A stretch of 64,000 nt of DNA from an uncultured Chlamydiae bacterium. Its GTDB lineage: Bacteria > Chlamydiota > Chlamydiia > Chlamydiales > SM23-39. The translations under genes were made by a program, and so were the position numbers. The stretch spans positions 576,001 to 640,000 of the forward strand of contig CAWHDP010000002.1 of NCBI GenBank assembly GCA_963828125.1, given 5' to 3'. Position 1 is the first letter of the stretch, and each line of letters begins with the position of its first letter. The notes below the pieces were generated by a model. The model made no database searches, was not told the DNA's origin, and saw only the letters and a list, made by a program, of their open reading frames with translations. Positions 3 through 59,820 of the stretch are shown here, piece by piece.

Positions 3-212
3 GACCTTGAGGGAGCAATCATTCCCATTTTCGACCGGGAGCGAACAATTGTAGATGCCTTTCGGCTCCTAAGCCGTGAGATTGCGATCAAAGCTCTAAA
101 AGCAGCCCTTGCCAAAGGAGGAAAAAATCGTCTCGACCTCGTAAAGCTGGAAGCGTATGCTAAGAAGCTCCGATTTAATCTTGCCCCTTATTTGCTGAGT
201 GTAACCACATGA
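3..212 (+). CDS. abiEi: AbiEi-family type IV TA antitoxin, 3' end only (runs in from window edge)
   Basis: Frame 3 reads ...IPIFDRERTIVDAFRLLSREIAIKALK...APYLLSVTT*, clearly homologous to the C-terminus of 37303..37899. ATGA overlap with the next gene. Confidence 0.85.
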   Translation, partial: DLEGAIIPIFDRERTIVDAFRLLSREIAIKALKAALAKGGKNRLDLVKLEAYAKKLRFNLAPYLLSVTT

Positions 213-9729: not shown

Positions 9730-9802
9730 CCTAAGATAGTCAAGAAATTGTGTAAAGAGCGACCCACTAGAGATATCCGAAAAAGAACCCGAAGTTAGGC
9801 TT

Positions 9803-19797: not shown

Positions 19798-20319
19798 TTA
19801 TTCAGAAGAAATTGTTCGCGAAGCTTGCTCGTAAGTCTCCTCATAAATCGCTTGGCGAGGATTTGCACGAGTGTAATACTTAAGCGTGCCATTAAGAGAA
19901 GTAATACAATCTATTTTTTCTGGTGGAAGCTCAGACCTGTCTGGATTGTAAATGAAAATTCTTATTTCAATGTTTTTGGCATTAAATGGATATTCATGAA
20001 GATAAAGTCTTATTTCTTTATTACTATTGATTGCTGATAGATATTCATTGATGACATGGACAATAAGCTCTCGACCTGTTTTGAGATCAACCTCTTGATA
20101 ATAATCAAAGCTCATAGCCAACATCTGTATGTCATCCATCATTTGTCCTCCTGTTCCTGCAAGGTACAAATTCTTTTGAGCTTTTAATTCCTTTGCAGTT
20201 TTTTCCGTAATTTCATGAGCTAGTTTTACATAACGGGGAGACTGATAGCCAAAAGAAGAACACCCAAAAAGAAAAGAGAACATAAATAGGATCACTCCAA
20301 TGCTAAAAAATAATCTCAT
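19798..20319 (-). CDS. Lipoprotein immunity protein for RHS-B
   Basis: ATGA overlap with the toxin stop; lipobox LFGC. Confidence 0.8.
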   Translation of the reverse strand: MRLFFSIGVILFMFSFLFGCSSFGYQSPRYVKLAHEITEKTAKELKAQKNLYLAGTGGQMMDDIQMLAMSFDYYQEVDLKTGRELIVHVINEYLSAINSNKEIRLYLHEYPFNAKNIEIRIFIYNPDRSELPPEKIDCITSLNGTLKYYTRANPRQAIYEETYEQASRTISSE

Positions 20320-28793: not shown

Positions 28794-29007
28794 AAGTGAT
28801 CATTGCATATAAGAAAAAAAAAGATCTTATCCAAAATCCCTTTTCCCTCAGAAGAGAAAACTTGCTTTGATACAATTTCCGTGGACCATTTGTGGACCAC
28901 TGGCATGCAAAAAAGTGCGATAAATGACGACAGTTCACAGTAGCTTGAAAGGCTAGCTTTCCGCTATGATTCCGGGGAGTTAGCTGCTGGGAAGTGGCGA
29001 AGGTGCT

Positions 29008-29054
29008 GCGGACTCATAACCCGTTGGTCCCTGGTTCAAGTCCAGGTTGCCCCA
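29008..29054 (+). repeat. att core: tRNA-CAT 3' half, copy 3
   Basis: GCGGACTCATAACCCGTTGGTCCCTGGTTCAAGTCCAGGTTGCCCCA; the upstream sequence is island arm, not a tRNA 5' half. Confidence 0.9.
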
Positions 29055-45253: not shown

Positions 45254-45898
45254 CTATTCAAGATCAGAAAATCTTTTCCATACAACAAATCCTTCCATAT
45301 CGTAAGCACCGATTACAATCAGAGTTGCCTTTAAAGCAATGTTTTGTAACTGCTCAGAAGTCACATTTAAATCGAATCCAGAATTTGTCTCTGAAATAAT
45401 ATTCATGTAATACCATTGAGCATCTGAATAATGAATCATCTTTTCTGCAATTTCTTGAGAGAATTCACCTTCCTTGATGTATAGATAAACCTCTTCATGA
45501 AAATAAAAAATATACTTCTTTATCTCCGATCTAATCGGATCCGATCTATGATGGACCATATCTTCAAAAAAGCAAGATTGCCCTGGCTGTAATATACTTT
45601 TTAAATAAAGAGCTAATTGATGAACAGAATGTGCTTTTTTTCTACCAGGATATAATCCCCCTTGAAAAAAGACATCCTCTAATGGATTTACTGCCAATAT
45701 GCCCCCAGCTTGGAATTCATGAATTTTTGTTCTATCCGCTGAGGGGTGAAGTAAAGCAAAAAATGAACCTTCCTTAAAGTCGAGGTTCATCAATAATTCT
45801 CGTGCTAAAGTGTGTCCATCTTGAAGTTGATCCGTTACATATCGAAATGTCTGTTCAAATTTCAATGGAAATATTTTTATTTCTACATTCACTGCCAA
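45254..45898 (-). CDS. Putative immunity protein for RHS-D
   Basis: Start overlaps the toxin stop; AT-rich; ends IGAYDMEGFVVW. Confidence 0.75.
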   Translation of the reverse strand: MAVNVEIKIFPLKFEQTFRYVTDQLQDGHTLARELLMNLDFKEGSFFALLHPSADRTKIHEFQAGGILAVNPLEDVFFQGGLYPGRKKAHSVHQLALYLKSILQPGQSCFFEDMVHHRSDPIRSEIKKYIFYFHEEVYLYIKEGEFSQEIAEKMIHYSDAQWYYMNIISETNSGFDLNVTSEQLQNIALKATLIVIGAYDMEGFVVWKRFSDLE

Positions 45899-48800
45899 CT
45901 CCCATTAGGAAATAAATCATAAGGAATTCCATTGGGATCTTTATATCCCCAGTGGGGACCTTTTGGATCTGGGTGCCACAAGTCGGGATGAAGTTTTTCT
46001 CCTGTATCAGGATTCAACCAATTGCCCTTGCCACTTTCTGGAGAACCTTTGCCTCGCCATTCAAAACCCTCTCCAGGACATTTTGATGGATCAGATCCTA
46101 AATCTTCTCCATTAAAGCGGGGCGGTTGTTTGGTCGCTTCTTTCCATTGCGGAGCATAAACATCAGTATTTTTCCAAGAGATATTAGGCGCTTTTATATC
46201 TTGCGCATGACAAGCAGTCGTTGCGAGCCCAAGTCCCATTAAAGCTAGTCCAGTCTTCGTTGTCACTCCCAACCCGACAGTGAATCCACCAATGGTAGCC
46301 ACCTCAAGGGCAAAACCACCCGCTATAATAGCTCCCCCTAAAACAATTTCCCCTAATCCAAGAAGATACCCTCCAACACTTTCTCCAGTAGGATCTTGAT
46401 AACGAAAGGGATTATTGAAAACGTACTGGTACAGATTTGAATGATCCTCAGCTCCAATTGGATCTGGAGTCAACCAACGTCTTAAAGTGGGATCATAATA
46501 ACGCTTACCGAAGTAGACTAGTCCTATTTTAGGATCATACCTCTTTCCAGCATACGCATAGGGAATCTGTTCAGAAAGACCTAATCCGAAAACATCGCAA
46601 TCATTCTGCTTGAAGATCTCCGTTGTTTTCCAATCAATGAGGAAGCGGGTGATCCCTTGGACATCCACTATCGGAGCGTAAGGCGTTTTGTTAATTTCAA
46701 TAGCTACAGGAGTAGAGAGTCCAGGAATTTTAAGCTCTTTAGGCTCTCCGTTTTCAAAAGCTCCTATTTCTTCATCGCCAATAGAGAGAAAAGCAGTCTG
46801 TCCTCTTTGAAACCTCCTTCCTAGAGCATCGTATACGGATGTTTCCCCTCCCGATTCAATTAGTTGGTCAAACTCATCATAGACAAATCCGGGCCTGACG
46901 AAGTTTCCATTTAGATCATAGCTAAGCCCTGCGATTTGATTAAGGGCATCAACAGTCATCGACTGACCATTTAACTCTTGGAGGTTGTAGTGAAGGTCAT
47001 AAACGGCCGTAAATCGTCCAGACTCGGAGGTCATTTGCGACTGTGAATCATAGGTGTAACTGGTATCTCCTCTTCTAACGAGATTCCCGGATGGATTATA
47101 GGCGGCAGTTTCTGTGTAATAAGGGGTATTTTGGCTGATTTTTCTTCCCATTCGATCATATTCGAAATTTGTTTGGAAAAATCCTGTACTTAAGCGAGGA
47201 TTGCCTTTTGGATCATATCGATCGTAGGTATGGGAATAAGCTTCAGTGCCATTTTCAGAAACTCTAGTAACCATTTTCAGGAAAGGGCCTTCATAATGGT
47301 ATTCGATTCGAGTTTGATCAGGCAGTCTTCGCATTAAGGGACGATCCCAATCATCATACTCGCTCTCTTGCCACAGACCATTAGACCATTCTTCTCGCTG
47401 GATATTCCCGAAAGCATCGAATTTTCTCGAAAACCCCGTTCCCCCGATCACTCGATCCAGCGCATCATATCGAAATTCCCGAGTTCCCTCTTTTTCAAGG
47501 CGTCCCTGAGTATCATATTCATGAAGTATTACGGTTCCGTCGGGCTTTTGTTTGATCAAAAGTCGATCGCCTGGAGTATAGGTCCAATTGGTGGTTCGAG
47601 TCCCCGCCTCCTTAATCGATTGCTTTTTTCCGTTTAGCGTGTAATCAAATGTAAGATGATCCTGTTTCTTTAAACGAAAAAGCTTATCATACTCAAACTC
47701 CGCTACTACCTGACCGGCCACTTCCTTTTTCAATAACTGCCCTTGAGGATTATAAGTCTCGACTGTCTCGATTCCCATCGGGTCTGTAATCTTTGTCAAG
47801 AGAGTTTGAGGTCCCTTTTCGTAGCGGATCTTAAGTCTATGACCTTCTGCATCGGTTTTCTGAGTCAGACGATCGTGGGCATCATAATGGAATGTTGTGA
47901 TCCCACCTTGCTCAATGGTGGCGACATTACCCCCCTCATCATAGGTCCAAAGAAAAGTCAGAGCGTTATCCACTGATTTCTCTCGTATCCGCCCTAACGA
48001 GTCGTTCGTATATTCGATTCGACGTCCCCCTCTCTCTTCCCAAGCTAAGAACCCAAGAGGATCATAGCCATAGCGGCTAATCCGATTTTGGCGTTTCTCC
48101 TCAATTTTTCGGCCTACGAGATCATATTGATACTCGGTGACAAAACCTTCGGCATCGATCATTTTATAGAGATTGTAGCTATCATTGTGGAAGGTGGTGG
48201 TAGCTTCACCCACTGTTTTTTCTTTTATGCGGCTGAGAGCATCATAGGTGTAAGCGGTTACTAGCCCATCTGCATCTGTATGGGATTTGAGCAGGCCGTT
48301 AGGGAAGTAATCGAACACCTCTTCTCCCCCACAGGGATGAAGGATGGTTGTGAGACAGCCGTAGCTGTTGTAAGTTTTTGCAGTTTTGATCTTATATGGA
48401 TCGATTTTCTCTTTTTCTCTTCCAAAGGCATCAAAGATGATTTCTGTGATGGCCGAGGGCTCTTCGATCCGATCTGGTTTCCCATGCACAGGGTCGTAAT
48501 GATACGTTATTGTATAGCCCAGGTAATCTGTCTTTTCGATCAGCTCATCGGATGCATTGTAGTCAAATCGAGTCTCTTGTTCGCCCTCATTGAGGACTTT
48601 AAGGCGACCTTTTGTATCGAATGTGCGTCTAATGATGAGGCCGTTTGAAACGGGTTCTTCATAAAAACATCTGCCTCTTGGGTCATATTGATAAGAAGCC
48701 AGCTCTCCAATGGGGTTCGTTTGATTAAGGAGTTCCCCTTTTTCATTATAGATTCGCTCAATAGTGTAACCGATTTTTCCATCTGAACCAAAATGCTCTT

Positions 48801-50448
48801 CCCTATTCGTATTCCCCCAAATATCGTATCCATAGTGAATTTTATGGATAAGGTCGCCCTTCCAATCGCTTTTTTCCTCCCACTCAACTCGATGCAAATG
48901 AGGATGGCTCTGATAAAGGGTATAGGTTGTTCTTGTCTTCCCTTCTTCCTCTTTTTGCATGAGATTGTTGGCATTATCATAAGAATAGATTGTCCTTCGG
49001 AGCTGTTTACCTGATTCCAAAGTCGTTTTAGAAGTGATAAGTCGCGTGTCGCCTAAGTATGTAAATGCATACGCAAGGCCATCGTCGTATTCTTCAAAAA
49101 TAAGGCGGTTCTTATCGAATTTACGCCTTATGCCAAAAACCCCGAAATCTCCTTCGGCTTTTTCTAGAGTAGCATTTCCAGCAGCATCGCATTCGAATCG
49201 TTTGGCGATGAGAAGCTTGCCCTCCCCATCTAGGGTTTCTATGCTTTTGATGTGTTGCTTGTGATCATACTCGAAGGTTTTCCTATTGACTTGCTTGCCC
49301 TTAAACCAATTTTCGATTGCCTCCAGCAGTAAAAACTTATTGAACCGGTATACAGTTTGCACGCCATCTGGATGAATGACCGTTGTGGAGCCGCTTTTTT
49401 TTCCTGCAACAGCTGGGTCATAAGAAAAGGAAAAAGATGCTGAAGGATTCGAAAAGGTTTGAATACGAGAAGGCACGTTTTTATTTTGAAAATAGGTACA
49501 CGCGACTGGATAGTCCTTTGCATCATAAGAATTGAGAAGAGTTCTCTCGTTGTACCCAACGGTATTTGTATAAACAGGGTTTGATCCTCTAGTCATTACT
49601 GGAAATTGAAAACTAGCCTTCTCCTTATAGCCATCTTTTTTGTATTCGCCTTTAATCTCTCTGGTCTCATACACAAGATCGACTTTTCTTCCATCTGAAC
49701 CTAAATAATGGTTACCGCTGACTCTCGTTATTGAAGCATAAACAAGTTGTCCGGTTGGATCAGATGATAAAATTTTGAATAGTCCCTGATCGTTGTACTC
49801 ATATCGAATTACCTTTCCATTTGAGAGCAACTCTTTTTCAAGCCGATAGATTCCTGCATACCGTTTAGAATATTGGCGCTGAACCCCATCCGGCCAAACG
49901 ACCTTTACCAAATTACCCTCTACGAGAAGCTCGATGTTGCGAATATCGGCTGAACTAGTTGGATTCTCTCCCCTCAGATTGCTGCATCCAAAAGAGCTAG
50001 TTTTTAGAACGCCCTTATTTCCTTGAATCTGAAACTCTAAAACAAAACCCTGCGGATCGCGAACTTGAAAATAGCTGGAATTACGGTTATAGCCAGCCCA
50101 AAGATGTGGATTGACAACCCATCCTCTTGTTTCAAGCTGATGAAGAGCCTTGCCCAACATGAGTTGATCTAACTTATCTTTATCTTCATAGCGACCAAAA
50201 ATCTGGGGCGGTACATAGGTCCTTTTCAAAAGAAGATCTTGAGCTCCCCTTACTTGCAGATCTATTTCGCTGATAGAAATCTGACCAGACGAAGCAGAAA
50301 CATATCCATCAATTAAAAAATCAGAAGTCAGAGAAAAAATTTCCTCTGGAGAAGAAGGCGTAACATCATCAAAAGAGCCTGCAAAGAGACGAGCCCCAAA
50401 ACCCACAATGAAAAACCAGCGCATAAAAAATCCTAAAAAAGAAACCAT
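45889..50448 (-). CDS. RHS toxin (RHS-D), paralog of RHS-A with an Ntox37-like tip
   Basis: Colinear with 5236..9729 up to HAQDI. Tip PGEGFEWRG..GNWLNPDTGEKLHPDLWH..GPHW resembles polymorphic toxin 37 (recognised from memory). Confidence 0.92.
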   Translation of the reverse strand: MVSFLGFFMRWFFIVGFGARLFAGSFDDVTPSSPEEIFSLTSDFLIDGYVSASSGQISISEIDLQVRGAQDLLLKRTYVPPQIFGRYEDKDKLDQLMLGKALHQLETRGWVVNPHLWAGYNRNSSYFQVRDPQGFVLEFQIQGNKGVLKTSSFGCSNLRGENPTSSADIRNIELLVEGNLVKVVWPDGVQRQYSKRYAGIYRLEKELLSNGKVIRYEYNDQGLFKILSSDPTGQLVYASITRVSGNHYLGSDGRKVDLVYETREIKGEYKKDGYKEKASFQFPVMTRGSNPVYTNTVGYNERTLLNSYDAKDYPVACTYFQNKNVPSRIQTFSNPSASFSFSYDPAVAGKKSGSTTVIHPDGVQTVYRFNKFLLLEAIENWFKGKQVNRKTFEYDHKQHIKSIETLDGEGKLLIAKRFECDAAGNATLEKAEGDFGVFGIRRKFDKNRLIFEEYDDGLAYAFTYLGDTRLITSKTTLESGKQLRRTIYSYDNANNLMQKEEEGKTRTTYTLYQSHPHLHRVEWEEKSDWKGDLIHKIHYGYDIWGNTNREEHFGSDGKIGYTIERIYNEKGELLNQTNPIGELASYQYDPRGRCFYEEPVSNGLIIRRTFDTKGRLKVLNEGEQETRFDYNASDELIEKTDYLGYTITYHYDPVHGKPDRIEEPSAITEIIFDAFGREKEKIDPYKIKTAKTYNSYGCLTTILHPCGGEEVFDYFPNGLLKSHTDADGLVTAYTYDALSRIKEKTVGEATTTFHNDSYNLYKMIDAEGFVTEYQYDLVGRKIEEKRQNRISRYGYDPLGFLAWEERGGRRIEYTNDSLGRIREKSVDNALTFLWTYDEGGNVATIEQGGITTFHYDAHDRLTQKTDAEGHRLKIRYEKGPQTLLTKITDPMGIETVETYNPQGQLLKKEVAGQVVAEFEYDKLFRLKKQDHLTFDYTLNGKKQSIKEAGTRTTNWTYTPGDRLLIKQKPDGTVILHEYDTQGRLEKEGTREFRYDALDRVIGGTGFSRKFDAFGNIQREEWSNGLWQESEYDDWDRPLMRRLPDQTRIEYHYEGPFLKMVTRVSENGTEAYSHTYDRYDPKGNPRLSTGFFQTNFEYDRMGRKISQNTPYYTETAAYNPSGNLVRRGDTSYTYDSQSQMTSESGRFTAVYDLHYNLQELNGQSMTVDALNQIAGLSYDLNGNFVRPGFVYDEFDQLIESGGETSVYDALGRRFQRGQTAFLSIGDEEIGAFENGEPKELKIPGLSTPVAIEINKTPYAPIVDVQGITRFLIDWKTTEIFKQNDCDVFGLGLSEQIPYAYAGKRYDPKIGLVYFGKRYYDPTLRRWLTPDPIGAEDHSNLYQYVFNNPFRYQDPTGESVGGYLLGLGEIVLGGAIIAGGFALEVATIGGFTVGLGVTTKTGLALMGLGLATTACHAQDIKAPNISWKNTDVYAPQWKEATKQPPRFNGEDLGSDPSKCPGEGFEWRGKGSPESGKGNWLNPDTGEKLHPDLWHPDPKGPHWGYKDPNGIPYDLFPNGSWQ

Positions 50449-50492: not shown

Positions 50493-52055
50493 CAGCAGCT
50501 CCCGCGAAAAGTGGGAGCTGCGAAAAATATAGAGATTTTTTAAACGCCTAAAATTTTTAGACAACCTCCTCCGATAGACCATCGTCCCGTCTTCAGAAAT
50601 TCAGAAAATACACCCTCTTGAACCAAAGATCCTTTTGAACTTTATTCTCTAGGAAGTATTCGCTAGTTCTACGAACCTTACCCCGCGCCTTTTACCCATT
50701 GCGGCATATAAAGCAGCCCATGAGTCAACGTGGAACTCTAAAACATACATGCGCAATTTTTCCCAAAATCGAGTCTTTCTTTTTGCCCTTTCGAGCGCTT
50801 CTTGCAATAGGCCACAACATCTTTGTTGTACCTGATCAATCAAAAACGCCAAAAACATAAGCAGCCCGAAGACATGACTCAGGTGCTTGTAGCCATGTCC
50901 AAAATTGTGTTCAAACTGATAGCCTTGGTTCTTGAGGGTGTTAAATGTCTCATTCTCAATGTGCCATCTCGCTCTACCTGCCCTTGCAAGGGGATATACG
51001 TTGTCTTGTGTAACTAACAGATCGGTGATCCATGAGAAATGGGTCACTTTGCCTTTTTTATCGCGTATCACGCAATCAATAAAATTAACCGACAGATCGT
51101 GATTCGAATCATTTAGTGGAACGCCATTATAAAACTGCACTTCGATCGATTCCTTTTTAGTTGTGATGGTCTTTTTTTCTAAAGGAACTCCCTTCAACCA
51201 TTCAAAAAGACTCGGATTGCCCGTAGGGTTGACGTTGACTATAAAGTGAGCCCCTATCTCTAAGATACGTCGAAGAGACGGTCCTTTTGCGCTTAATGCA
51301 TCCTCCGTAAAAATCGCCTCGAGGCGAGGATGTTCTCGCTGAAAGTCTACTAAAAGTCGTTTCATAGCATTCTGTTCACAATCGTTCTTACTAGATCCAT
51401 CGGCTTTTGAAATGGGTTCTGGACATAGAGGAAAAACTTCTTTCTGGTCGGGATGTACTACAACAGCCCCCAGCATTTGGTGATAATAGGTGATCTGCCC
51501 ATCCTTATGATGTTTTTCACAGCAGTTCTCACAATGAACGGTGTTGGAGGAAAACATTCCTGTGCCATCGCAAGCAATCACCAGATATTTACCTAGGATT
51601 TTATAATCATCCAACACCTTCCCTCGTTGAAGGAGAGAAAAAACAGAAGTAAAAGCCGGCCTGAGAGCTCTTGGGTCCACCTCATCCAATCTCGCTCTCA
51701 TAGAGGTGTCGCAGGGTGCGTCATTGACGCCGTAAAGGGTTTTGAGGTTATGTCTGAGTGCTGCCTCTTCCTGAGAATCATCGAATTGAAGAAGGGAAGG
51801 GAATTTTAATCCGAAAACAGCCAACCCAGACATCAAACAGTCTGACAGGGGAATCCGTGCTTTCACGCCCCGTGGACTTTTTTGTGGTTCTGGAACTTCT
51901 TCGAAAATAGAACGCACTTTTTGCAACATCCCGGTTGCGGAGAGTTGCTTTTTCTCAACGGAATGAATACCCATAGCCTTTTCTTAACCTTTGCGAAAAA
52001 ATAGTTAAAAAAAGAGTCTACCTCATTGCGAAAATTTATTTAACGGGAATTGCTG
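50493..52055 (-). mobile_element. Insertion sequence with DDE transposase (ISNCY-like)
   Basis: Inverted ends CAGCAGCTCCCG / CGGGAATTGCTG; no matching TSD. Confidence 0.8.
50649..51974 (-). CDS. DDE transposase
   Basis: IACDGTG, TEDAL, RARWHIENETFNTLKNQGY.FEHNFGHG. Confidence 0.92.
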   Translation of the reverse strand: MGIHSVEKKQLSATGMLQKVRSIFEEVPEPQKSPRGVKARIPLSDCLMSGLAVFGLKFPSLLQFDDSQEEAALRHNLKTLYGVNDAPCDTSMRARLDEVDPRALRPAFTSVFSLLQRGKVLDDYKILGKYLVIACDGTGMFSSNTVHCENCCEKHHKDGQITYYHQMLGAVVVHPDQKEVFPLCPEPISKADGSSKNDCEQNAMKRLLVDFQREHPRLEAIFTEDALSAKGPSLRRILEIGAHFIVNVNPTGNPSLFEWLKGVPLEKKTITTKKESIEVQFYNGVPLNDSNHDLSVNFIDCVIRDKKGKVTHFSWITDLLVTQDNVYPLARAGRARWHIENETFNTLKNQGYQFEHNFGHGYKHLSHVFGLLMFLAFLIDQVQQRCCGLLQEALERAKRKTRFWEKLRMYVLEFHVDSWAALYAAMGKRRGVRFVELANTS

Positions 52056-52080
52056 CTTGATCGGATTAAAAGGCAGGAGA

Positions 52081-52298
52081 TATGTGCATGCCAATATGGT
52101 TATGAACCTGGCCACAAGAGCTAGGGAAATCTTTAAAAGTTCTGAAGTGGACGAAAAACGTCAACTTTTAGATTTAGTATTTCAGAACTTGCAATTGAAA
52201 GACGGAAATCTCTCATTTTCAGTGAGATAACCGTTCTTAACGATGATGGATTTTAAGAATCGTCCGAAAGAATGGGGGCGGCTGGACGGATTCAGAAC
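52081..52298 (+). pseudogene. Large serine recombinase, C-terminal remnant
   Basis: Manual translation ..LATRAREIFKSSEVDEKRQLLDLVFQNLQLKDG..*PF..EWGRLDGFR, typical of large serine recombinase tails; rest removed at the IS end. Confidence 0.7.
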
Positions 52299-52845
52299 GT
52301 GCGACACGAGGTCGCTGGAGGGAATTGTCTTGAGACCACTCCTTATGCGCGCGGTCAAAACGGAAAACCTGATCAAATACCTGAATGTGAAAATTCAGGG
52401 GTGGGTCAATTATTACGGCACTGCGTAGCAAAAGCGACGTTTAACTACTTAGACAATAGCATATTCTGGATAGTTTGGAAGTGGGCCAAAAGGCGACATC
52501 AGAACAGGGGGGCATCCTGGATCCGGAAAAGGTATTACACTACCTTGGGACTCAGAAAGTGGTGCTTCTACTCGAAGGTGAAAGCGGGAAAACAAGAATC
52601 CCGTATTCTTCTCACTCTGGCACAACGCACGAAGATCGAAAGACACGTGAAGGTCAGGTCGGAAGCTTCGCCGTATGATCCCGATTTTAAGGAATATTTC
52701 ATAAAACGGAAAGGAGAAAAGATGAGAAAAAAAAATGATAGCTGGGTGATATGAGCCTTAAGAGAGGCTTGAGCCGTATGATGGGAAACTATCACGTACG
52801 GTTCTTAGAGGAGGAAACTAGGGCAACCTAGTTTCCTTACTCAAC
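52299..52845 (+). mobile_element. Group II intron, internally deleted
   Basis: 5' GTGCG; domain V GAGCCGTATGATGGGAAACTATCACGTACGGTTC (52771-52804); domain VI hairpin ending AC; only the maturase X region of the ORF remains (LNVKIQGWVNYY / RHCVAKATF..WKWAKRRH). Confidence 0.9.
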
Positions 52846-52847
52846 TT

Positions 52848-53333
52848 TTGATTGGCAGAAATTTTCCTCGTTACGTTACCATTTGCCAAAAGATTTCCTC
52901 ACAAATAGGCAATATGGTCAGATTGTACCGTTGGCTTCCGATCATGCTCGCCTATACCGCTGCTGACAGCGCTCAGCCTCCAGCTGTCGTTCATTATGAG
53001 CCAAGCATTGTACAGCTGACGGGAACTTTGAAAGAGTGCGTTTGCCCAGGACCTCCCGAATACGAAAACATAGAAATGGGAGATGCTCCAGAACATATTT
53101 TTGTATTGATGTTGGATCATCCCGTACATGTAAGAGAGCTCGAACCTAAAAAAGATTTTTTAGATGAACCCGAAGATAACGTTACTGAAATTCAAGTTGC
53201 AGCTTCTTCAAGCGAAGTACAACCAATTCTAGGTAAACATGTTAAAATCTCAGGCACGTTATTCCATGCCATTACGGCTCATCACAGAACAGAAGTCATC
53301 ATGATCAATGACTCCATGAATATAATAGAGTAA
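52848..53333 (+). CDS. DUF4431-like exported protein (true start probably downstream)
   Basis: LTGTL..PGPPEY..LMLDHP..GTLFHAITAHHRT. Confidence 0.65.
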   Translation: MIGRNFPRYVTICQKISSQIGNMVRLYRWLPIMLAYTAADSAQPPAVVHYEPSIVQLTGTLKECVCPGPPEYENIEMGDAPEHIFVLMLDHPVHVRELEPKKDFLDEPEDNVTEIQVAASSSEVQPILGKHVKISGTLFHAITAHHRTEVIMINDSMNIIE

Positions 53334-53408
53334 AATTTAAACATGGAAATCGTTGATTGCTTAACAAAAACGCCTTATAATTGACTCCTACATAACGAGG
53401 TAGATTTT

Positions 53409-53817
53409 ATGGCGAACAAAAAGTACGTCTGGATTAAAGCCGAAGGAAATGCTGACCAGTCCATTACGTACCATGACCAAGATGGCAATAAGTTAACCCG
53501 CTATCTCGATCCAAAGGCTAAAAATCCACCGAGAGGAACTAAATCTTGGCGCCACCAAAACCCTGGAAATATTAATCATGGCGATTTTTCTAAGCGTCAC
53601 GGAGAAATTGGGTTCGCCTGTTATCCAAGCCCCTACGATCCTAAGAAAAAAAATCTGTTTTGCCATCTTCCCTGACTATGAAACAGGTAGACTTGCATTC
53701 GCAGCGCTTCTGAAAACGGAAAGATTCATTGATCTGACCCTAAATCAGTTTCCTCGATTCTATACAGGCCTTCTTAAAGATAGCCTGCCGGACACCACCT
53801 CAATCTATGCCAGATAA
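53409..53817 (+). pseudogene. NPGN-motif lysozyme-like protein, frameshifted and truncated
   Basis: SWRHQNPGNI, frameshift at an A-run near 53650, then FAIFPDYETGRLAF; similar to the N-terminus of 15714..17171. Confidence 0.6.
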
Positions 53818-53946
53818 AGTTGTTGGAGTGAAATTCTTAAAACACAAAGCCACAGAATTTCTAGTATACTTGGTGCAGCTGATATAAATTCGTCTTAAAA
53901 CACCTTTTGAAAAATAGATAATTAACATCAAATTTGCTATCAATAG

Positions 53947-54102
53947 GCCAGTCTTAAAAAAGAACTTGTCGATGAAATATTAAGCCTATCAAAAACCCGC
54001 ATGATACGGCAGACATTGGCTGATAAACTTGATATCGGGGTAGCTACTGTATATAGGGCATTGAAAGAACCTGGCAATAAAGACAATTACAAGAACCTCT
54101 AA
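53947..54102 (+). pseudogene. Resolvase-type HTH remnant
   Basis: Manual translation ..LADKLDIGVATVYRALK.. Confidence 0.5.
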
Positions 54103-54148
54103 ACCAAAGATTTACTGTCTCTTTCCCCCTTTTTATTTAAGCAGAATC

Positions 54149-54178
54149 TTGACATCATGTAACCATATAGGTTACAAT
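54149..54178 (+). promoter_or_regulatory. Sigma70-type promoter overlapped by a palindromic operator
   Basis: TTGACA-N18-TACAAT with TGTAACC-N5-GGTTACA (54158-54176) upstream of higB. Confidence 0.75.
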
Positions 54179-54199
54179 TAAAAGAAATATGGAAATGTA

Positions 54200-54481
54200 G
54201 TGCCGATAAAGTCGTTTAAGCACAAAGGACTGAAGAAGTTCTTTGAAACCGATAGTAAATCTGGAATTCAGCCGGCACATGCGAAAAGGATTGGGCTTAT
54301 TTTAGACTTGCTGGATGGCGCTCTGATAGCCCAAGATATGAATTTTCCTGGCTCAGATTTCCACTTGTTGAAGGGAAATTTAAAGAATTTTTACTCCGTT
54401 CATGTGAATGGTAATTGGACAATTATCTTTCGGTTTGAAAATGGAGATGCTAATGATGTGGACCTAATAGACTATCACTAA
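54200..54481 (+). CDS. higB: HigB-like toxin
   Basis: IKSFKHKGLKKFFE..HLLKG..YSVHVNGNWTIIFRF..DLIDYH. Confidence 0.9.
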   Translation: MPIKSFKHKGLKKFFETDSKSGIQPAHAKRIGLILDLLDGALIAQDMNFPGSDFHLLKGNLKNFYSVHVNGNWTIIFRFENGDANDVDLIDYH

Positions 54482-54492
54482 AACGAGGATTT

Positions 54493-54837
54493 ATGATTAG
54501 AAAAAGAAAACCTTCGCATCCCGGAGAAATCCTTGATGATCTGTATATCAAACCTCTTAATTTAAATTTGCAAAAACTTGCAGATAGACTTGGGATCGCG
54601 CGCAACACTTTGTTTAAGATTCGGACCGGATTAGCAAGCGTAACTCCTGCTATTGCGCTTTCATTAGCAGAAGCTTTTGACACTACGCCCCAGCTGTGGA
54701 TTAACTTACAAACGAATTATGATTTGTGGATTGAAGCGAAAGAACACGAACATGTTCGCCCCATCGTAAAAAATGGCGAACTTCTTCCAAGCGAAAGGAA
54801 TATCCAAATCGCCGCAAGCCCACGAAGCCATAAATGA
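54493..54837 (+). CDS. higA: HigA antitoxin
   Basis: HPGEIL..LA..LGI..TPAIALSL..TTPQLWINLQTNYDLW. Confidence 0.92.
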   Translation: MIRKRKPSHPGEILDDLYIKPLNLNLQKLADRLGIARNTLFKIRTGLASVTPAIALSLAEAFDTTPQLWINLQTNYDLWIEAKEHEHVRPIVKNGELLPSERNIQIAASPRSHK

Positions 54838-54956
54838 GCGCACAAAACAAATCAGTAAGAAAAGAGTTTTCGGCTTGGCCTTGAGTTAAAGGTAAGCTTG
54901 CAGAAACGTCCTAGAGTCCTCACAACCAGCGTTATTCACATCAAACGTAACCAATG

Positions 54957-55244
54957 CTAAAAACTCCCCCGAAATTGCCCTGCACCCTTGAATTGGCGAG
55001 GATCAATTGAATTGATATGCTTAAAGCGCCCAAGAGATGCGCCTTCAAGCGATCCGATAGGCTCCTTCATGGAAATTCTGTTCCCAAAGTATGAGAAAAC
55101 ACTGTAGCGCAAGGCATCAATCGCTTGGTCCGCCCTTTTGATGGGGGCGTCTTCGCCCCGTTCTGCTGCTTTTGGGTCCCAGCAATATCCTTGTATCTCT
55201 CCAATCAAGTTACGGCAATTGCGACAAATCTTTAAATCCCCCAT
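54957..55244 (-). pseudogene. Phage terminase large subunit, C-terminal fragment
   Basis: CRNLIGEIQGYCWD..GEDAPIKRADQAIDALRY resembles the PBSX-type terminase nuclease end. Confidence 0.65.
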
Positions 55245-55577
55245 TGAAAGATACGAGGAGGAGGAAATGCTGCTTCTACGGGCTTATTACAAGAGCGGGC
55301 GTTGGAATCTGTTAAAAAAGATGGCTTATGAGGGAGGTTTGTCCTATGCAGCGTAGCTTTTTAGGCGGCTACCCAGAAAATGGGAATGCGCCCTGTCCAA
55401 CAGCCAAAATTAACTCCTTATTTTTCCCTGTCAAAGTCTCAGTACTCTTATTCAAGGGTATCAATTCTCGATCTCGACGTAAAATATACTGACGCAGAGG
55501 GAAAATTCTGTTAATTAGGAGACGAGCTTCTTCTATCTGACTGCTGTCAGAAGCAACAACCACTGCTATCATGATCA

Positions 55578-55874
55578 TCAAGCCAAACTGATTTTTAAAT
55601 GTCTACCAAGAGCGCGGGCAGCTTTTGCGAATGTCCGCAGCGTAGATGGGCATTCGGGATCTAAAATGCGATCAACAGCAGACCGACTTGTTTCCATCCG
55701 TTCGGCAAGTTCTGCTTTATCGATTCCCTGTTTCTTCATCTCTTTTTCCATTTGAAAAACGAAAATCTTTTTGGCGACTACTTCTTCGATTTCTTCCAAG
55801 ATTCCCTCTTCTTTTAAGAAATCATCAAAATTGGAGCCAATATGCTTGTTTTTTTTCATATTCATCCTCTCCAA
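55578..55874 (-). CDS. XRE-family HTH antitoxin
   Basis: HIGSNFDDFLKEEG..KAELAERMETSRSAVDRILDP..TLRT. Confidence 0.85.
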   Translation of the reverse strand: MERMNMKKNKHIGSNFDDFLKEEGILEEIEEVVAKKIFVFQMEKEMKKQGIDKAELAERMETSRSAVDRILDPECPSTLRTFAKAARALGRHLKISLA

Positions 55875-56219
55875 ACCTCTTTTGCTCTTTTTAACCCTAT
55901 CTCTAAATCCTGGGAAGGCGTCTTCTGCGTCTTCTTAATAAATCCATGCACCAAAACCATTTGTCCCCCATGCATTACAAAGAGAACCCTGGCAATTGTA
56001 TTCGGAAGAGTACTGCGCACTTCCCACAATCCCTTTCCTAAATTCCTAACAAGGGGCATACCCAAAGGCCATCCTTCTTGCACCATTTTGATATCCTCTC
56101 CGATCGCGCGCCTTTCCCCCCTTCTTTAAGGATTTTAACCATTCCCTGACCGGTTCCTTTCCATTTTCTTGCTTATAGAAGTCAACAGAGATAATTTTTC
56201 GGGGCGCTAAATCAGACAT
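55862..56219 (-). pseudogene. RelE/Gp49-like toxin with a frameshift in a G-run
   Basis: FYKQENGKEPVREWLKSL, shift near 56116-56121, then IGEDIKMVQEGWPLGMPLVR..GLWEVRS..HGFIKKTQKTP. Confidence 0.8.
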
Positions 56220-56254
56220 GACGTCCTTTTACCTTCAAATTCTAACACTGATTT

Positions 56255-56268
56255 TACCAAATTTGGTA
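56255..56268. promoter_or_regulatory. Perfect palindrome, putative TA operator
   Basis: TACCAAATTTGGTA about 35 bp upstream of the toxin start. Confidence 0.55.
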
Positions 56269-56343
56269 CAAAAAAAAGCAAGAGCCTGATATTTCAGAAC
56301 TCTAACCCATTCAAATAAAACATATTAAAATTTCGTGTCCGGA

Positions 56344-56382
56344 GAATGGGGGCGGCTGGACCCATTCAGAACTTTTGACTGG
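56344..56382 (+). repeat. Serine-recombinase att-like repeat, copy 2
   Basis: GAATGGGGGCGGCTGGACCCATTCAGAACTTTTGACTGG; compare 52270-52298 + 52846-52855 and 57168-57203. Confidence 0.8.
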
Positions 56383-56495
56383 GCAAAGCTATCAAACACT
56401 CTGGGTTTCAAACACTTTCCTGTTCATCAACAATTCGAGAGGCTAGTCAAGAGATAATATTCCTGTCAGAAGCATTACTCCTAGCATGCTATTTT

Positions 56496-56909
56496 TCAGA
56501 CAACCTCAAGCTTCGGTGTAAAATTAGAAGGACTGTAAATTGAATTCCTTTGAACATCTGGATTCATCCGTTGTCTATCATTCAGCTCTCTTTCCCAATT
56601 TTCCTTATTGTTTAGGGCATCAGAAGCAGCATCTACAACCATCGCAGTCCCAGATAAAATTAGCGCAGTGCTAGTTCCTGCGCTGAATGGAGCAGCCAAA
56701 ACGCCTACAAGAATTTGACCTACACCAAACCAATATTTCAATTTCACTCCACTAGGCTGCTCTTGTTTGCATAAGCGAGCCATTCCTATAAAACCAACCT
56801 GTTCTACGGAAGAAGCAGGCAAAGCTTTATGATACACCTGGAGGACAAAACTCATCATAGGATCGGAAAGCTCTTCAGCAGAAGGCACCCCGCTAGTATA
56901 GATCCCCAA
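56496..56909 (-). CDS. Hypothetical protein fragment with a Gly/Ala-rich hydrophobic hairpin
   Basis: ORF with WFGVGQILVGVLAAPFSAG..; start uncertain, probably 5'-truncated. Confidence 0.4.
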   Translation of the reverse strand: MGIYTSGVPSAEELSDPMMSFVLQVYHKALPASSVEQVGFIGMARLCKQEQPSGVKLKYWFGVGQILVGVLAAPFSAGTSTALILSGTAMVVDAASDALNNKENWERELNDRQRMNPDVQRNSIYSPSNFTPKLEVV

Positions 56910-57055
56910 AGAAGCGCAATTCCTTTGCGCATTTTTTTTGAGTCATTCATCTGCCAAGCTGTTTTTAGCATTAATATGCTGGGAGGTAACGCAAAAAACG
57001 AAAACAATAAAAGCCCTAAACGGACTATAGAAAAAACGATGTATCCTTGTTCCAT
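56855..57055 (-). CDS. Small membrane protein
   Basis: 66 aa, two hydrophobic segments, AGGA upstream of ATG. Confidence 0.45.
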   Translation of the reverse strand: MEQGYIVFSIVRLGLLLFSFFALPPSILMLKTAWQMNDSKKMRKGIALLWGSILAGCLLLKSFPIL

Positions 57056-57167
57056 GAAAATCCTATCTTTGAGGAAGAGAAATATATAGAAACAAAAATT
57101 ATATTGTCAAACCATCACAAAAAAATAAATTCATATCTCTTTGAAGATAAGTAGATTGAAAGAACTT

Positions 57168-57203
57168 TGGGGGCGGTTGGACGGATTCAGAACTTTTGAT
57201 TGG
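57168..57203 (+). repeat. Serine-recombinase att-like repeat, copy 3
   Basis: TGGGGGCGGTTGGACGGATTCAGAACTTTTGATTGG. Confidence 0.8.
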
Positions 57204-57466
57204 AGAAAGTTACAAGACAATAATCGTCATTTGAACTGGCTGTTCCTTCAAAAAATAATAGTTTCGACTGGAGCGGTTTGCAAATGAGTCTTCCATCGCC
57301 GAGAAAAAAATTCCGAAACATCACAATAAGGATTCCTAGCCAAACAGATCTTAAATCGAAGATCGTCATTTCCTAATGCGATAGCTTGGAATTCCGCAAT
57401 GGACAAAGTAGTCTGTATACAGCTTTCTGAAATCGAAACCGCTGCCACAGCTTCTTGCTAGCTTTT

Positions 57467-58750
57467 TTAAGGAGCTTCGTAAGCTGTGTATTTCAGTGAT
57501 TTTCCCCGACATTTATCCGTTGGGTACTTTTGTTTCATTTTCTCAAACTTTTGATACGCGGCTTCAATTGGATCGATCTTGAGCTTATGAGAAAGATAGA
57601 GAACGGCTTTAAACACATCAGCAATTTCGTCTCGAACTTCTTGCAACGTCTTCGAGTCCGGATGGTAACTTTGCTCTTCACTCATCCATCGAAATAAATC
57701 CAAAAGTTCACCTGCTTCTGAAGCAAGATCCATCACTAGGTTTTTCGGAGAGTGAAACGGCTCCCATTGACGTTCTTGATAAAACTCAAGCAAAGATGTT
57801 AAGACTTTCTCATGAGGCACTTGCAGTTTTATCTCCGTTCTCCTCAAACGAGGAATAAATTCACTAAACGCATCTTTTACCGCCTTTGGATTTTCCACCC
57901 AGCCCATATGCCCAGCATCTTCTATAAAAAGTATTTTGATGTTGGGACGATGAAATCGTTGGTCTTTTTCAAAAAGAGAAAAAGGACAAATGCAATCATA
58001 CTTGCCACCGACAATTAAGGTAGGAGTTTGGTTAGGAATCCAACTGGCAGAAAAATTAAGCTCTATTGCTTTTCTCTGCCACCAAACTGCAGGCTGCCAT
58101 TGGAAAGGAACGTGAGAAAGCAATTCTCTCCCCCTTTCTAAAGTCTCCTTTGGAAAATAGTACGGTAGGCAAGCACTCAAGGCAGTATTGAAAGTTTCTT
58201 GATTTGGATGGAGGGTAAACTCCGTCATTTCCTGCGTTAAATCAGGCACATCAAACTGCTTAGAATAGTTTACCGCTTCTTCTAGCCATAAGGTTGGCGC
58301 AGCATTCAAAATGACAAACCCTTCGAGGTAATTTTCCAGCTCTGGAAACATCAAAGGAAACATCCCTCCAAATGAATGACCTACTAATACAGGATGATCA
58401 AATCGTCTGACAATCTCAGGAAAAAGTTCAATCCATTGATCAAAATTTTCTGCAAAATCATTCGGTACATTCGCTCCATTTCCAGGCAAATCGATGAGCC
58501 ACACGTTTCCAGGCAAATCTAATTGATCGACTAAACTTTTAAGATAACTTGAGTCCGCCCCTGGTCCGCCAGGAAAAAATAGCCAGTTGTACGGTTGCCC
58601 ACCATTTGTTTGATACAACTCATAACGAACCTGATTTGAATCATAAGAATAGTGGCTCATTTTTGGTCTCTCGTTTAAATTTTGTATTTCTGAACACAGC
58701 ATCATTGGAATGGCCAAATAACATAGTAGGGAAAATATTCTTGTCTTCAT
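57467..58750 (-). CDS. Alpha/beta hydrolase fused to a MazG-like nucleotide pyrophosphohydrolase
   Basis: PGGPG, GHSFGG, GKYD, AGH; then ERQWEPFHSPKNL..EAGEL..DEIADV. Confidence 0.85.
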   Translation of the reverse strand: MKTRIFSLLCYLAIPMMLCSEIQNLNERPKMSHYSYDSNQVRYELYQTNGGQPYNWLFFPGGPGADSSYLKSLVDQLDLPGNVWLIDLPGNGANVPNDFAENFDQWIELFPEIVRRFDHPVLVGHSFGGMFPLMFPELENYLEGFVILNAAPTLWLEEAVNYSKQFDVPDLTQEMTEFTLHPNQETFNTALSACLPYYFPKETLERGRELLSHVPFQWQPAVWWQRKAIELNFSASWIPNQTPTLIVGGKYDCICPFSLFEKDQRFHRPNIKILFIEDAGHMGWVENPKAVKDAFSEFIPRLRRTEIKLQVPHEKVLTSLLEFYQERQWEPFHSPKNLVMDLASEAGELLDLFRWMSEEQSYHPDSKTLQEVRDEIADVFKAVLYLSHKLKIDPIEAAYQKFEKMKQKYPTDKCRGKSLKYTAYEAP

Positions 58751-59211
58751 TTTTCAATCGCTATCAATATATCTACTTCTTTTGAAGTTCCTGAAAACTT
58801 GTGGCCGTAAACCTCATAATCCCCTGCATAGGTCCGCTTTAAATCTGAACGCCAAATATTACCCCAGGTATCGATTAGACTTTTGGGGAAATCACCCACG
58901 GCGCAATAAAGAGCAAAAGTTGACTCCGGAACTGTCTTACCAACCATTCCGTCAGGAATTGCCTCTAAAGAATTCACAACACACCCAATCACGCAAGAAT
59001 AGGGTTGGGTGTAATCCCCTTCATAGTCACAGTAGAGAGCAATTACTTCATCTGAAGCCTTGTTGGGAATCTTACTCTGGATATTTTCTGCATAAAATTT
59101 TTGCCAAAGCTGAGGAATATCCTGCGAGCCTGCATTAGGATCATTTGAAGTGCGACATTCAATGCCGACAACCATCATTCGAGGCTTGTGAACCTTTGTA
59201 AAATTTTGCAT
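58747..59211 (-). CDS. GyrI-like small-molecule-binding protein
   Basis: VVGIECRTSN..IPQLWQKF..ALYCDYEGD..WGNIW..RTYAGDYEVY. Confidence 0.85.
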   Translation of the reverse strand: MQNFTKVHKPRMMVVGIECRTSNDPNAGSQDIPQLWQKFYAENIQSKIPNKASDEVIALYCDYEGDYTQPYSCVIGCVVNSLEAIPDGMVGKTVPESTFALYCAVGDFPKSLIDTWGNIWRSDLKRTYAGDYEVYGHKFSGTSKEVDILIAIEK

Positions 59212-59384
59212 TAGTCGTTCCTTGTTAGTATTTATTTCTTCTGCTGATTTATGGGCCTATAGAATGAATAATTGACTTCTGTCTCAAGGAAAAAGTGGGA
59301 CAGGGGTTGGACAAATCTGATAGTCAATCGATTGCCTGACCTTCTTTTTTGATCTTATTTCACTCATTTTTTACCTATGGAAAA

Positions 59385-59466
59385 TGGGGGCGGGCGGACT
59401 CGAACCGCCGAAAACCGAAGTTGGGGGATTTACAGTCCCCTGCAATTGCCGCTATGCGACACCCCC
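59385..59466 (-). tRNA. tRNA-Tyr(GTA)
   Basis: Full cloverleaf with long variable arm; anticodon loop CTGTAAA; GGTTCGAGTCC. Confidence 0.97.
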
Positions 59467-59481
59467 AGAAATGGGAAATTT

Positions 59482-59553
59482 TGCTGGCGAAAGGAATTGA
59501 ACCCTCAACCATCCGATTACAAGTCGGGCGCTCTACCATTGAGCTACGCCAGC
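59482..59553 (-). tRNA. tRNA-Thr(TGT)
   Basis: GCTGGCG acceptor stem, loop CTTGTAA, GGTTCAATTCC. Confidence 0.97.
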
Positions 59554-59568
59554 AAAGAAAGAAACACT

Positions 59569-59820
59569 TTAACAAATCTCCTCTTTTTCGTGGGAATTTT
59601 GTTCTCCCTTCTCCGCCGGAGGCATCGGTTTCTTCGGCGTTTCAGCCAGACGAGCCTGAAAAAGCGATGTCATATTCACCGCTTTCTTAATTTGCATCGC
59701 GCTCTCAGGATCCACCTTCGTAGCCATAAACCGACCCCCCAGCATCTTGCTCTCGCAACACTTCTTAAATTTTTTACCAGACCCACAGGAACAAGGGTCG
59801 TTTCGCCCAATTTTCTTCAT
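59569..59820 (-). CDS. SEC-C metal-binding motif protein
   Basis: [19 protein letters not shown]. Confidence 0.9.

Follow-up and report, generated by a model that had tools for sequence, protein, structure and literature searches.

Repeats and segments beside a tRNA-Tyr gene

The DNA stretch analysed here (the window) comprises 64,000 nucleotides of an uncultured Chlamydiae bacterium (assembly GCA_963828125.1, contig CAWHDP010000002.1, positions 576,001 to 640,000). Next to its tRNA-Tyr gene lies an array of three accessory segments, A to C, separated by copies of a short repeat that resembles an attachment (att) site of a large serine recombinase (Table 1). A window scan placed the repeat core, TGGGGGCGG, on the + strand at 52273, 56347, 57168 and 59385, the positions given by an earlier interpretation made from the letters without database searches (the sequence-only reading). 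As that reading had proposed, the core at 59385 is the reverse complement of the tRNA-Tyr acceptor end: ARAGORN and Rfam place the tRNA there, and 59385-59393 are the reverse complement of the 3' end of tRNA-Tyr(gta), the sole tRNA-Tyr called by ARAGORN in the genome. The tRNA end equals the core (O) over 59385-59393, and 13 of 15 nt agree as far as 59399. The expected count of TGGGGGCGG in the window is 0.22, and five or more were reached by 0/100 shuffles; a further match at 7211(-), within a large open reading frame (ORF), is unrelated and represents a chance occurrence of the 9-nt core. The 26-nt pattern TGGGGGCGGYTGGACNNATTCAGAAC occurs three times against an expectation of 0.

Table 1 Features of the array and its borders in the window.
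Feature	Position	Strand	Remark
441-aa ORF of a repeated (putatively IS-like) element	50649..51974	-	truncates the recombinase remnant on its 5' side
Large serine recombinase 3' remnant, P arm	52057..52298	+	~80 codons, one in-frame TAA
att copy 1, first 26 nt	52273..52298	+	core O TGGGGGCGGCTGGAC, then GGATTCAGAAC
Group II intron, internally deleted	52299..52845	+	547 nt, within P' arm of copy 1
att copy 1, last 10 nt	52846..52855	+	TTTTGATTGG; P' arm whole again once the intron is removed
DUF4431 ORF, segment A	52848-53333	+	
Segment A	52856..56346	both	
ORFs without known function, segment A	53409-53817	+	
HigB, segment A	54200-54481	+	
HigA, segment A	54493-54837	+	
Terminase large-subunit fragment, segment A	54957-55244	-	
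Helix-turn-helix antitoxin, segment A	55578-55874	-	
Gp49-type toxin, segment A	55862-56219	-	frameshifted
att copy 2 (O-P', 36 nt)	56347..56382	+	
Segment B	56383..57167		two small hydrophobic ORFs, 56496-56909(-) and 56855-57055(-); no family match
att copy 3 (O-P', 36 nt)	57168..57203	+	
Segment C	57204..59384		two intact-looking ORFs
Alpha/beta-hydrolase-MazG ORF, segment C	57467-58750	-	427 aa
Cass2/GyrI-like ORF, segment C	58747-59211	-	
tRNA-Tyr(gta)	59384..59467	-	ARAGORN, Rfam; attB-type partner
tRNA-Thr(tgt)	59481..59554	-	ARAGORN, Rfam; belongs to the conserved right flank

In att copies 2 and 3 the full 36-nt unit consists of core O and an arm, P', which ends TTCAGAACTTTTGAYTGG and codes for ..FRTFDW. 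The sequence-only reading had all three cores running into LDxFRTFDW codons; this applies to copies 2 and 3 and fails for copy 1, which is split by an intron, and the LDGFRTCDT read at that copy is intron sequence. All three O-P' copies and the tRNA-Tyr end share the + strand, and each junction repeats the terminal bases of the tRNA; G053, G109, G018, G137 and further genomes show such a layout at their own target genes. Outward from tRNA-Tyr the order is segment C, copy 3, segment B, copy 2, segment A, copy 1 and the recombinase stump. The distal segment bears that stump together with the intron remnant, the terminase fragment and the frameshifted toxin. Decay thus grows with distance from the tRNA, which fits, if weakly, with insertion at the tRNA end. 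The left flank of copy 2 retains about 16 nt resembling the P arm of the recombinase (..CGTGTCCGGAGAA). In local alignments of the left flanks of copy 2, copy 3 and the tRNA to the recombinase remnant, the observed scores were reached by 7, 92 and 134 of 300 shuffles, and none of the three matches better than shuffled sequence.

ORF and domain scans agree with the earlier description of segments of about 4.1, 0.8 and 2.2 kb holding toxin-antitoxin, membrane, GyrI-like and hydrolase genes, and they likewise found no intact recombinase in them. The small ORFs of the window received no family name from Pfam, NCBIfam or PHROGs. The ORF adjoining tRNA-Tyr, 58747-59211(-), matches Pfam Cass2, 'integron-associated effector binding protein' (E 4.6e-24), a family whose name derives from integron cassettes. 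Relatives of the 427-aa ORF were found at four loci in other Chlamydiae metagenome-assembled genomes; there the hydrolase and MazG parts are not joined, residues 14-306 being matched at one locus and about 310-427 at three.

At the distal end, the frame upstream of copy 1 reads ..LIGLKGRRYVHANMVMNLATRAREIFKSSEVDEKRQLLDLVFQNLQLKDGNLSFSVR*PFLTMMDFKNRPKEWGRLDGFRT. The remnant shows 94-96% identity to the C-terminal part of Chlamydiota proteins of 500-550 aa (P0002 and P0004) and aligns to P0002 residues about 423-507; only the last ~80 codons remain, and there is no Resolvase domain (PF00239). The match in its own genome has an E value of 4.5e-48 with 1 TAA. A search of the contigs of this genome returned two remnants and no further match, and thus no intact recombinase of the family. 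On the 5' side, the 441-aa ORF has an identical second copy and a 49% paralogue elsewhere in the genome and no match in Pfam, NCBIfam or PHROG. One part of the second copy lies at the extreme end of contig C1 (G000:C1:444744-445412), the other at an internal position on C2 (C2:17738-18391). The ORF resembles a repeated mobile element that coincides with a break in the assembly, and it is called IS-like (insertion sequence-like) from its copy number only.

Copy 1 is interrupted after TTCAGAAC (52298), exactly behind the bases ATTCAGAAC of its P' arm, by the intron remnant. The 5' end of the intron, GTGCGAC at 52299, agrees with GUGYG, and domain V/VI was detected at 52769-52845 by Rfam Intron_gpII (RF00029; 64.2 bits, gathering score 40). 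Of the intron-encoded protein just the GIIM maturase part is found by Pfam, in two frames, with no intact reverse transcriptase/maturase. Contigs of other intron copies depart from the window sequence at 52344. In another genus of the same family (G166; L083, G166:C11, at a contig end), ATTCAGAAC is likewise followed by this intron 5' end (GTGCGACACGAGG..), at a site whose left flank is different and not recombinase-derived. Three other 1-mismatch matches in this junction search are due to chance, the controls having given 4 matches. Some group II introns are said to target integron attC sites, and by analogy this intron family may home into the P' arm.

A fourth att copy lies on contig C1 in a rearranged segmental duplicate of part of segment A (G000:C1:403500-406800; L005 about 6800-10450). 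The duplicate holds a stop-free recombinase remnant, an intron fragment, HigA, a longer terminase fragment and a degenerate P' copy, with no tRNA near. This copy illustrates how the repeats might have multiplied by local or segmental homologous duplication of the recombinase 3' end, with no site-specific insertion at all. For the three window copies that explanation is already contradicted and highly improbable: their flanks are mutually unrelated on either side, and in relatives the breaks in homology fall at the site (see below).

The recombinase family and its C-terminal tails

A search for longer proteins containing the remnant yielded 64 homologues, many of 490-550 aa. All four that were scanned for domains (P0014, P0002, P0058, and P0043) have an N-terminal Resolvase domain (PF00239), a Recombinase domain (PF07508), a zinc beta-ribbon (PF13408) and a long C-terminal region. 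The closest solved structure for the homologues is the C-terminal domain of the A118 integrase (4KIS, E 2.5e-4). Because the Resolvase, Recombinase and zinc-ribbon domains are present, the homologues are identified by sequence as large serine recombinases.

The C-termini of all 64 homologues were classified by eye. About 55 pass from ..W(G/R)(R/W).. (as ..EWGR) into the antisense of a tRNA or transfer-messenger RNA (tmRNA) gene (tDNA). In one example the tail ..WGRLDSNQRRPKSRDLQSLAIATMRHP..LAKGIEPSTIRLQVGRST is antisense tRNA-Tyr plus tRNA-Thr, as in the window ORF 59349-59690. Two homologues, both N-terminally incomplete, end ..WGRLDGFRTFDW.. or ..WRWRDAFRTFDW.. (FRTFDW), and seven tails are cut or different. 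Since the tails run into antisense tDNA or end in FRTFDW, this comparison shows the predicted att site to be the 3' end of the recombinase gene itself, with an exchange point in the last codons at which the C-terminus would be swapped. It also supports an assignment of the tDNA-derived tail to the integrated state and of the FRTFDW tail to the P-O-P' state. The proposal that the att site lies inside the recombinase 3' end and that integration swaps the C-terminus, already part of the sequence-only reading, thereby gains a basis in the family as a whole.

A homologue of the recombinase (E <= 1e-20) was found in 43 of 200 genomes, and just nine matches span the protein without stops. At 13 loci with long recombinase matches, the neighbouring genes were compared. 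Eight of these adjoin a tDNA called by ARAGORN: tmRNA at L061, L064, L069, L076 and L053, tRNA-Tyr at L067, tRNA-Met at L077, and tRNA-Asn at L068. At the remaining five the neighbour is a tDNA-like 3' fragment, which in one case lies at a contig end.

The identity of the P' arm with the end of a serine recombinase gene bears on another origin of the repeats, namely that they are displaced tRNA 3' fragments of tyrosine-integrase islands or chance matches to a tRNA end. We regard this origin as scarcely credible, even though tRNA genes are the classical targets of tyrosine integrases according to the Islander paper (PMC4383910) and the 9-nt core does occur once by chance at 7211(-). Past the 13/15 nt shared with the tRNA, the repeat is the end of the recombinase gene, and the Phage_integrase family had no match among 19 window ORFs and 76 cargo ORFs of 10 other arrays; on these two grounds a tyrosine-integrase or tRNA-fragment origin was ruled out. 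The 26-nt pattern, with its chance expectation of 0, and the identical arm after a tmRNA-type core in other genomes point the same way.

A tRNA-Met class of the family was also noted (P0043, P0046, P0050, P0053, P0004, P0031, P0034, and P0047-P0051). About 12 tRNA-antisense codons (..WGNLDLNQGPAGYES) are common to its members, which beyond that point diverge both from the tRNA and among themselves; the core shared in this class may be much longer and extend to the anticodon arm. The C-terminal bodies of P0004 and P0002 are almost identical, but their target tails differ (Met vs Tyr). In the window, a tRNA-Met(cat) of 67 nt is called at 28988-29054; the genome has a full 76-nt copy 41 kb upstream (C2:563979-564054) and a 67-nt copy at C2:1289287-1289353. 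The antisense of the tRNA-Met 3' end (TGGGGCAACCTGGAC..) corresponds to the WGNLDLNQ tail of the tRNA-Met class. Between the first two copies (window 1-28988) lie very large ORFs of 1497 and 2825 aa, and this stretch may be another tDNA-bounded island. In total the window has four very large ORFs, all on the - strand (5236-9729, 20316-28793, 30998-36505, and 45889-50448; 1497-2825 aa), the last of which appeared by eye to be a putative RHS/YD-repeat-like gene with a variable C-terminal tip.

Sites, arrays and breakpoints in related genomes

The P' arm, GGACNNATTCAGAACTTTTGAYTGG, was searched with up to 2 mismatches and found in 77 of the 201 sampled genomes of the order (61/128 genera), and the reversed pattern used as a control gave 0 matches in the same genomes. 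It was not found in any of 11 small genomes of family f35. There are two dominant core classes, TGGGGGCGGYTGGAC (tRNA-Tyr) and TGGAGGTGGAGAGAC (tmRNA); the arm TTCAGAACTTTTGAYTGG is identical in both, and core O varies with the target. Same-strand arrays are present at tRNA-Tyr in G053, G156 and G080, and at tmRNA in G109, G018, G065, G178, G195, G138, G133, G067 and G137. The array of G053 has five sites in 10 kb beyond tRNA-Thr/tRNA-Tyr and no recombinase. The sequence-only reading had suggested looking for the repeat near tRNA-Tyr in related genomes, where it was indeed seen in G053, G156, G060 and G080. In these four genomes the tRNA-side flank is syntenic (tRNA-Thr, a small SEC-C protein, a TilS-like gene, a symporter, and SurE) and the array side is not. 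The att site had no match in PLSDB for carriage by plasmids, and the 25-nt pattern had none in IMG/VR for carriage by viruses.

The 76 ORFs of the 10 other arrays include HigB, DUF4258, AbiEii, Fic/DOC, AAA_21/AAA_15, SbcCD-like, DUF4143 ATPase, RhuM and HNH proteins. GNAT, SDR, aldo-keto reductase, Fe-ADH, histidine phosphatase and TetR proteins, transporters and IS66/Mutator transposases are present as well. Judged by predicted products, the window segments fit this cargo picture. In G133, a Gp49-type toxin module like that of the window forms the tRNA-proximal end of several cassettes, and both modules have the palindrome ACCAAAT.TGGTAC upstream. In at least 5 places the same genome carries a gene for a PPR-like repeat protein of 673 aa, and an O-P' site lies immediately beyond the 3' end of this gene (L050 7093-10027, L048, L049, L070, and L072).

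For an analysis of breakpoints, 96 unique sites were collected from the fetched loci by the 18-nt arm with up to 2 mismatches, leaving aside window copy 1, exact duplicates and sites less than about 140 nt from a locus end. Flanks of 120 nt were called similar at >= 80% over >= 50 nt. In the 30 flank-similar pairs, the similarity is confined to the left flank in 12 and to the right flank in 16, and 2 pairs have it on both sides; the flank homology extends up to the site, also between genomes of different genera. This comparison shows that homology between the predicted sites breaks at the site. Conservation spans O+1..O+36, and that of O is not by construction. The left arm is nearly free: positions -6..-1 tend to be purines in the Tyr class, and position -1 is A/T in either class. 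Strong hairpins were found in 18 of 31 left arms of the tmRNA class and in 5 of 31 control stretches. In most tmRNA-class cassettes (e.g. L042 13560-13606, and L045) a terminator-like hairpin with a far-side A-run is present 8-15 nt before O, and each cassette would thus supply a terminator to any transcription directed at it, also that of the tmRNA gene; the Tyr-class left arms of the window have no such hairpin.

These flanks can also be read as the outcome of decay in tandem islands, in which each segment came with its own tRNA-proximal recombinase that was later deleted, and none moved without its own enzyme. A remnant of the recombinase lies upstream of 7 of the 96 sites, and such remnants are expected from decay, as are the 80-codon remnant at copy 1, the ~16 P-arm-like nt at copy 2, and the position of every full-length gene seen at a tDNA junction, displaced copies being stumps. 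At 89 of 96 sites there is no remnant, however, and deletions would have had to stop within a few bases of O repeatedly. Sequence to the left of copy 2, copy 3 and the tRNA, as described above, matches the remnant no better than shuffles, and the tmRNA-class left arms bear hairpins of their own instead.

The decayed-island explanation also has to account for a pair of genomes of different families. A 1.57-kb cassette is common to G109 (family f26) and G065 (f29) with 94.6% identity, against 71% for the tmRNA genes of the two genomes. At its end the cassette has the same hairpin and ..agtactgat in both genomes, with TGGAGGTGGAGAGA next. In G109 the tmRNA body follows directly after the O of the cassette end. 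In G065, the P' arm follows O, then a 4-kb block without a recombinase match, then a tmRNA preceded by another hairpin arm. The recombinase-less block is thus present or absent precisely at O, and the difference would be the expected trace of its insertion or excision within O. Recombinase loss clearly occurs as well; it explains the clean junctions and the G109/G065 pair less well, and we consider it unlikely that decay of autonomous islands is the whole explanation.

An alternative junction at the tRNA-Tyr gene was found in contigs from public runs that hold the window stretch, X1 (0.96 of words, perhaps the source run) and X2. One contig of each joins tRNA-Tyr (59379 onward) to ..TTTAAGAATCGTCCA and not to segment C; for X2 the agreement from 59379 onward is 1 mismatch in 288 nt. 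TTTAAGAATCGTCCA and the following GGAAAATGGGGGCGG code for ..FKNRPGKWGR, a short recombinase stump (~24 nt) with an in-frame TAA three codons upstream, and such a stump before tRNA-Tyr is again in line with decay of an island. The neighbour of tRNA-Tyr therefore varies within 6 nt of O, though the contig may be that of another strain. The X2 contigs do not cover 57514-58849, and this gap is not evidence of absence.

A model of insertion and its relation to known systems

The best explanation of the array, to which we give a probability of about 0.6, is that three accessory segments were stacked at tRNA-Tyr by site-specific insertion, B and C likely being recombinase-less cassettes moved in trans. 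The partners brought together by the recombinase would be an O-P' site and the tDNA end, O-B', with strand exchange in the first 9 bases of O; the segments would have been inserted one by one, by recombination within the 9-15 bases common to the site and the tRNA end. Each insertion would regenerate the tRNA gene and leave an O-P' copy distally, and repeated insertions would stack the segments with the newest beside the tRNA and the oldest distal. Because tDNA flanks and cassette left arms are both unconstrained, the enzyme would recognise mainly O and the right-hand arm, and a cassette would then be inserted and excised by a single type of reaction. Segments B and C would have been brought in as cassettes lacking a recombinase, with the enzyme acting in trans. 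We infer this trans-mobilisation from sequence comparison, and the comparative data lean towards trans-moved, recombinase-less cassettes for the element family. For the window's own cassettes, decayed islands and trans-moved cassettes cannot be told apart. The window array is probably an inert relic that is now immobile, because the genome has no intact recombinase.

Several points weigh against this explanation. Nothing indicates that segments B and C ever moved, and the P' motif was found within 4 kb of relatives of the segment C gene in 0 of 4 loci; mobility of the window's own cassette C was rejected as a candidate on the same count for the 427-aa ORF. Decay of once-autonomous elements is a fact, because copy 1, copy 2, 7 of the 96 sites and the alternative tRNA-Tyr junction keep remnants. 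The 96 sites come from loci chosen by us, and conservation over O+19..O+36 holds by construction. Part of the flank shuffling could stem from rearrangements and not from cassette transfer. The repeated PPR module of G133 has one end only at a site, and its copies were left out as proof of cassette transfer. Large serine recombinases join short attP and attB sites at a central dinucleotide; here, where junctions were compared, the exchange point is placed differently by different signs: a GTCC/GGAC dyad points to GG at O+2-3 and hybrid cores to GG at O+8-9. Mapping of the crossover by travelling polymorphisms is ambiguous, in that the hexamer O+10..15 goes with the right module in G089 and other pairs conflict. 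Large serine recombinases bind two half-sites per att site, and a free left arm is without a tested precedent here.

A broader proposal would be an order-wide chlamydial cassette system on tRNA and tmRNA genes, in which a recombinase with attP in its own last codons needs the core and one arm and inserts and excises recombinase-less cassettes in trans, the window array being a relic of it. We put this forward tentatively and with less than even confidence. Obligate intracellular chlamydiae are thought to have few routes of gene gain. If the proposal is true, they would have a general one, in which toxin-antitoxin, defence-type and small metabolic genes are stacked site-specifically at tRNA-Tyr and tmRNA. 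For recombinase biology, the points of interest are that just one arm of the att site is conserved and that attP in the gene's own 3' end makes the protein tail differ between the free and the integrated state. An enzyme that truly acts on half-defined sites would make a compact tool for inserting DNA at tRNA ends. The window itself yields a modest result, namely a decayed relic that has lost its enzyme.

In a search of full-text literature, subscription journals and supplements being outside its scope, no description of such a system in Chlamydiae was found. The general kind is known from serine-recombinase islands stacked at gene 3' ends, as in the staphylococcal cassette chromosome (SCC) and the Dehalococcoides ssrA islands. 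The window adds the tRNA-Tyr class, the arm common to both classes, and the intron at the same arm base in a second genus (G166). The large serine recombinase family described here uses tRNA genes; the Islander paper had stated that none was known to do so (PMC4383910).

The Dehalococcoides islands are inserted by a large serine recombinase, DsiB, at the tmRNA 3' end and lie in tandem, each bounded by a direct repeat of the tmRNA end with a short conserved motif, according to McMurdie et al. 2011 (PMC3146451). Some lack the integration module, and the authors discuss them as cis-mobilisable (PMC3146451). Their direct counterpart would be the chlamydial tmRNA-class arrays. The chlamydial elements differ in their target (tRNA-Tyr here, tRNA-Met and tRNA-Asn in relatives), in a core of 9-15 nt where that of Dehalococcoides has 20, in an att site within the recombinase's own last codons, and in segments of 0.8-4 kb where the Dehalococcoides islands are large. 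In contrast to the six-gene module with DsiB and DsiA, the window ORFs hold neither a module nor a second recombinase. None was found beside the recombinase genes examined, a systematic search in relatives not having been part of the analysis. The likeness to DsiB is one of target and architecture.

Islander islands and tycheposons are inserted by tyrosine integrases at tRNA/tmRNA genes (PMC4383910) and at tDNA (bioRxiv 10.1101/2020.12.28.424599), respectively. Like the chlamydial elements, they enter the 3' part of a tDNA, regenerate the gene and build up in tandem there. Their repeats are genuine tDNA fragments, whereas the chlamydial repeat shares only 9-15 nt with the tDNA.

In SCC and SCCmec of staphylococci, the large serine recombinases CcrAB act at the 3' end of rlmH/orfX. 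The chlamydial arrays resemble them in the stacking of serine-recombinase elements at a conserved gene 3' end, in junctions that repeat the terminal bases of the target, and in stacks that include members without a recombinase of their own, composite SCC islands being summarised in PMC3146451. A serine recombinase adjoins the target in relatives, and the window keeps a distal stump only. SCC differs in its protein-gene target, its size of tens of kb, an att site outside the recombinase gene, and another host phylum. The sequence relation between the SCC and chlamydial recombinases is known from shared Pfam domains only.

Integrons consist of the tyrosine recombinase IntI, attI and attC sites. 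As in an integron, one anchored site gathers small, mostly recombinase-less cassettes rich in toxin-antitoxin and unknown genes, and a group II intron occupies a recombination site, as is the case for attC. The chlamydial array differs in having no tyrosine recombinase, in being anchored by a tRNA or tmRNA gene and not by attI with a Pc promoter, and in carrying genes on both strands. DNA folding of copies 2 and 3, each taken together with its 20-nt flanks and on either strand, gave z scores of -0.07, -0.11, -0.63 and -0.60 and showed no attC-like folding of the att sites. The 'integron-style' of the sequence-only reading is therefore apt as an analogy, though not for the integrase or for the hairpin. 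If the proposal is true, the arrays would be a serine-recombinase counterpart of the integron.

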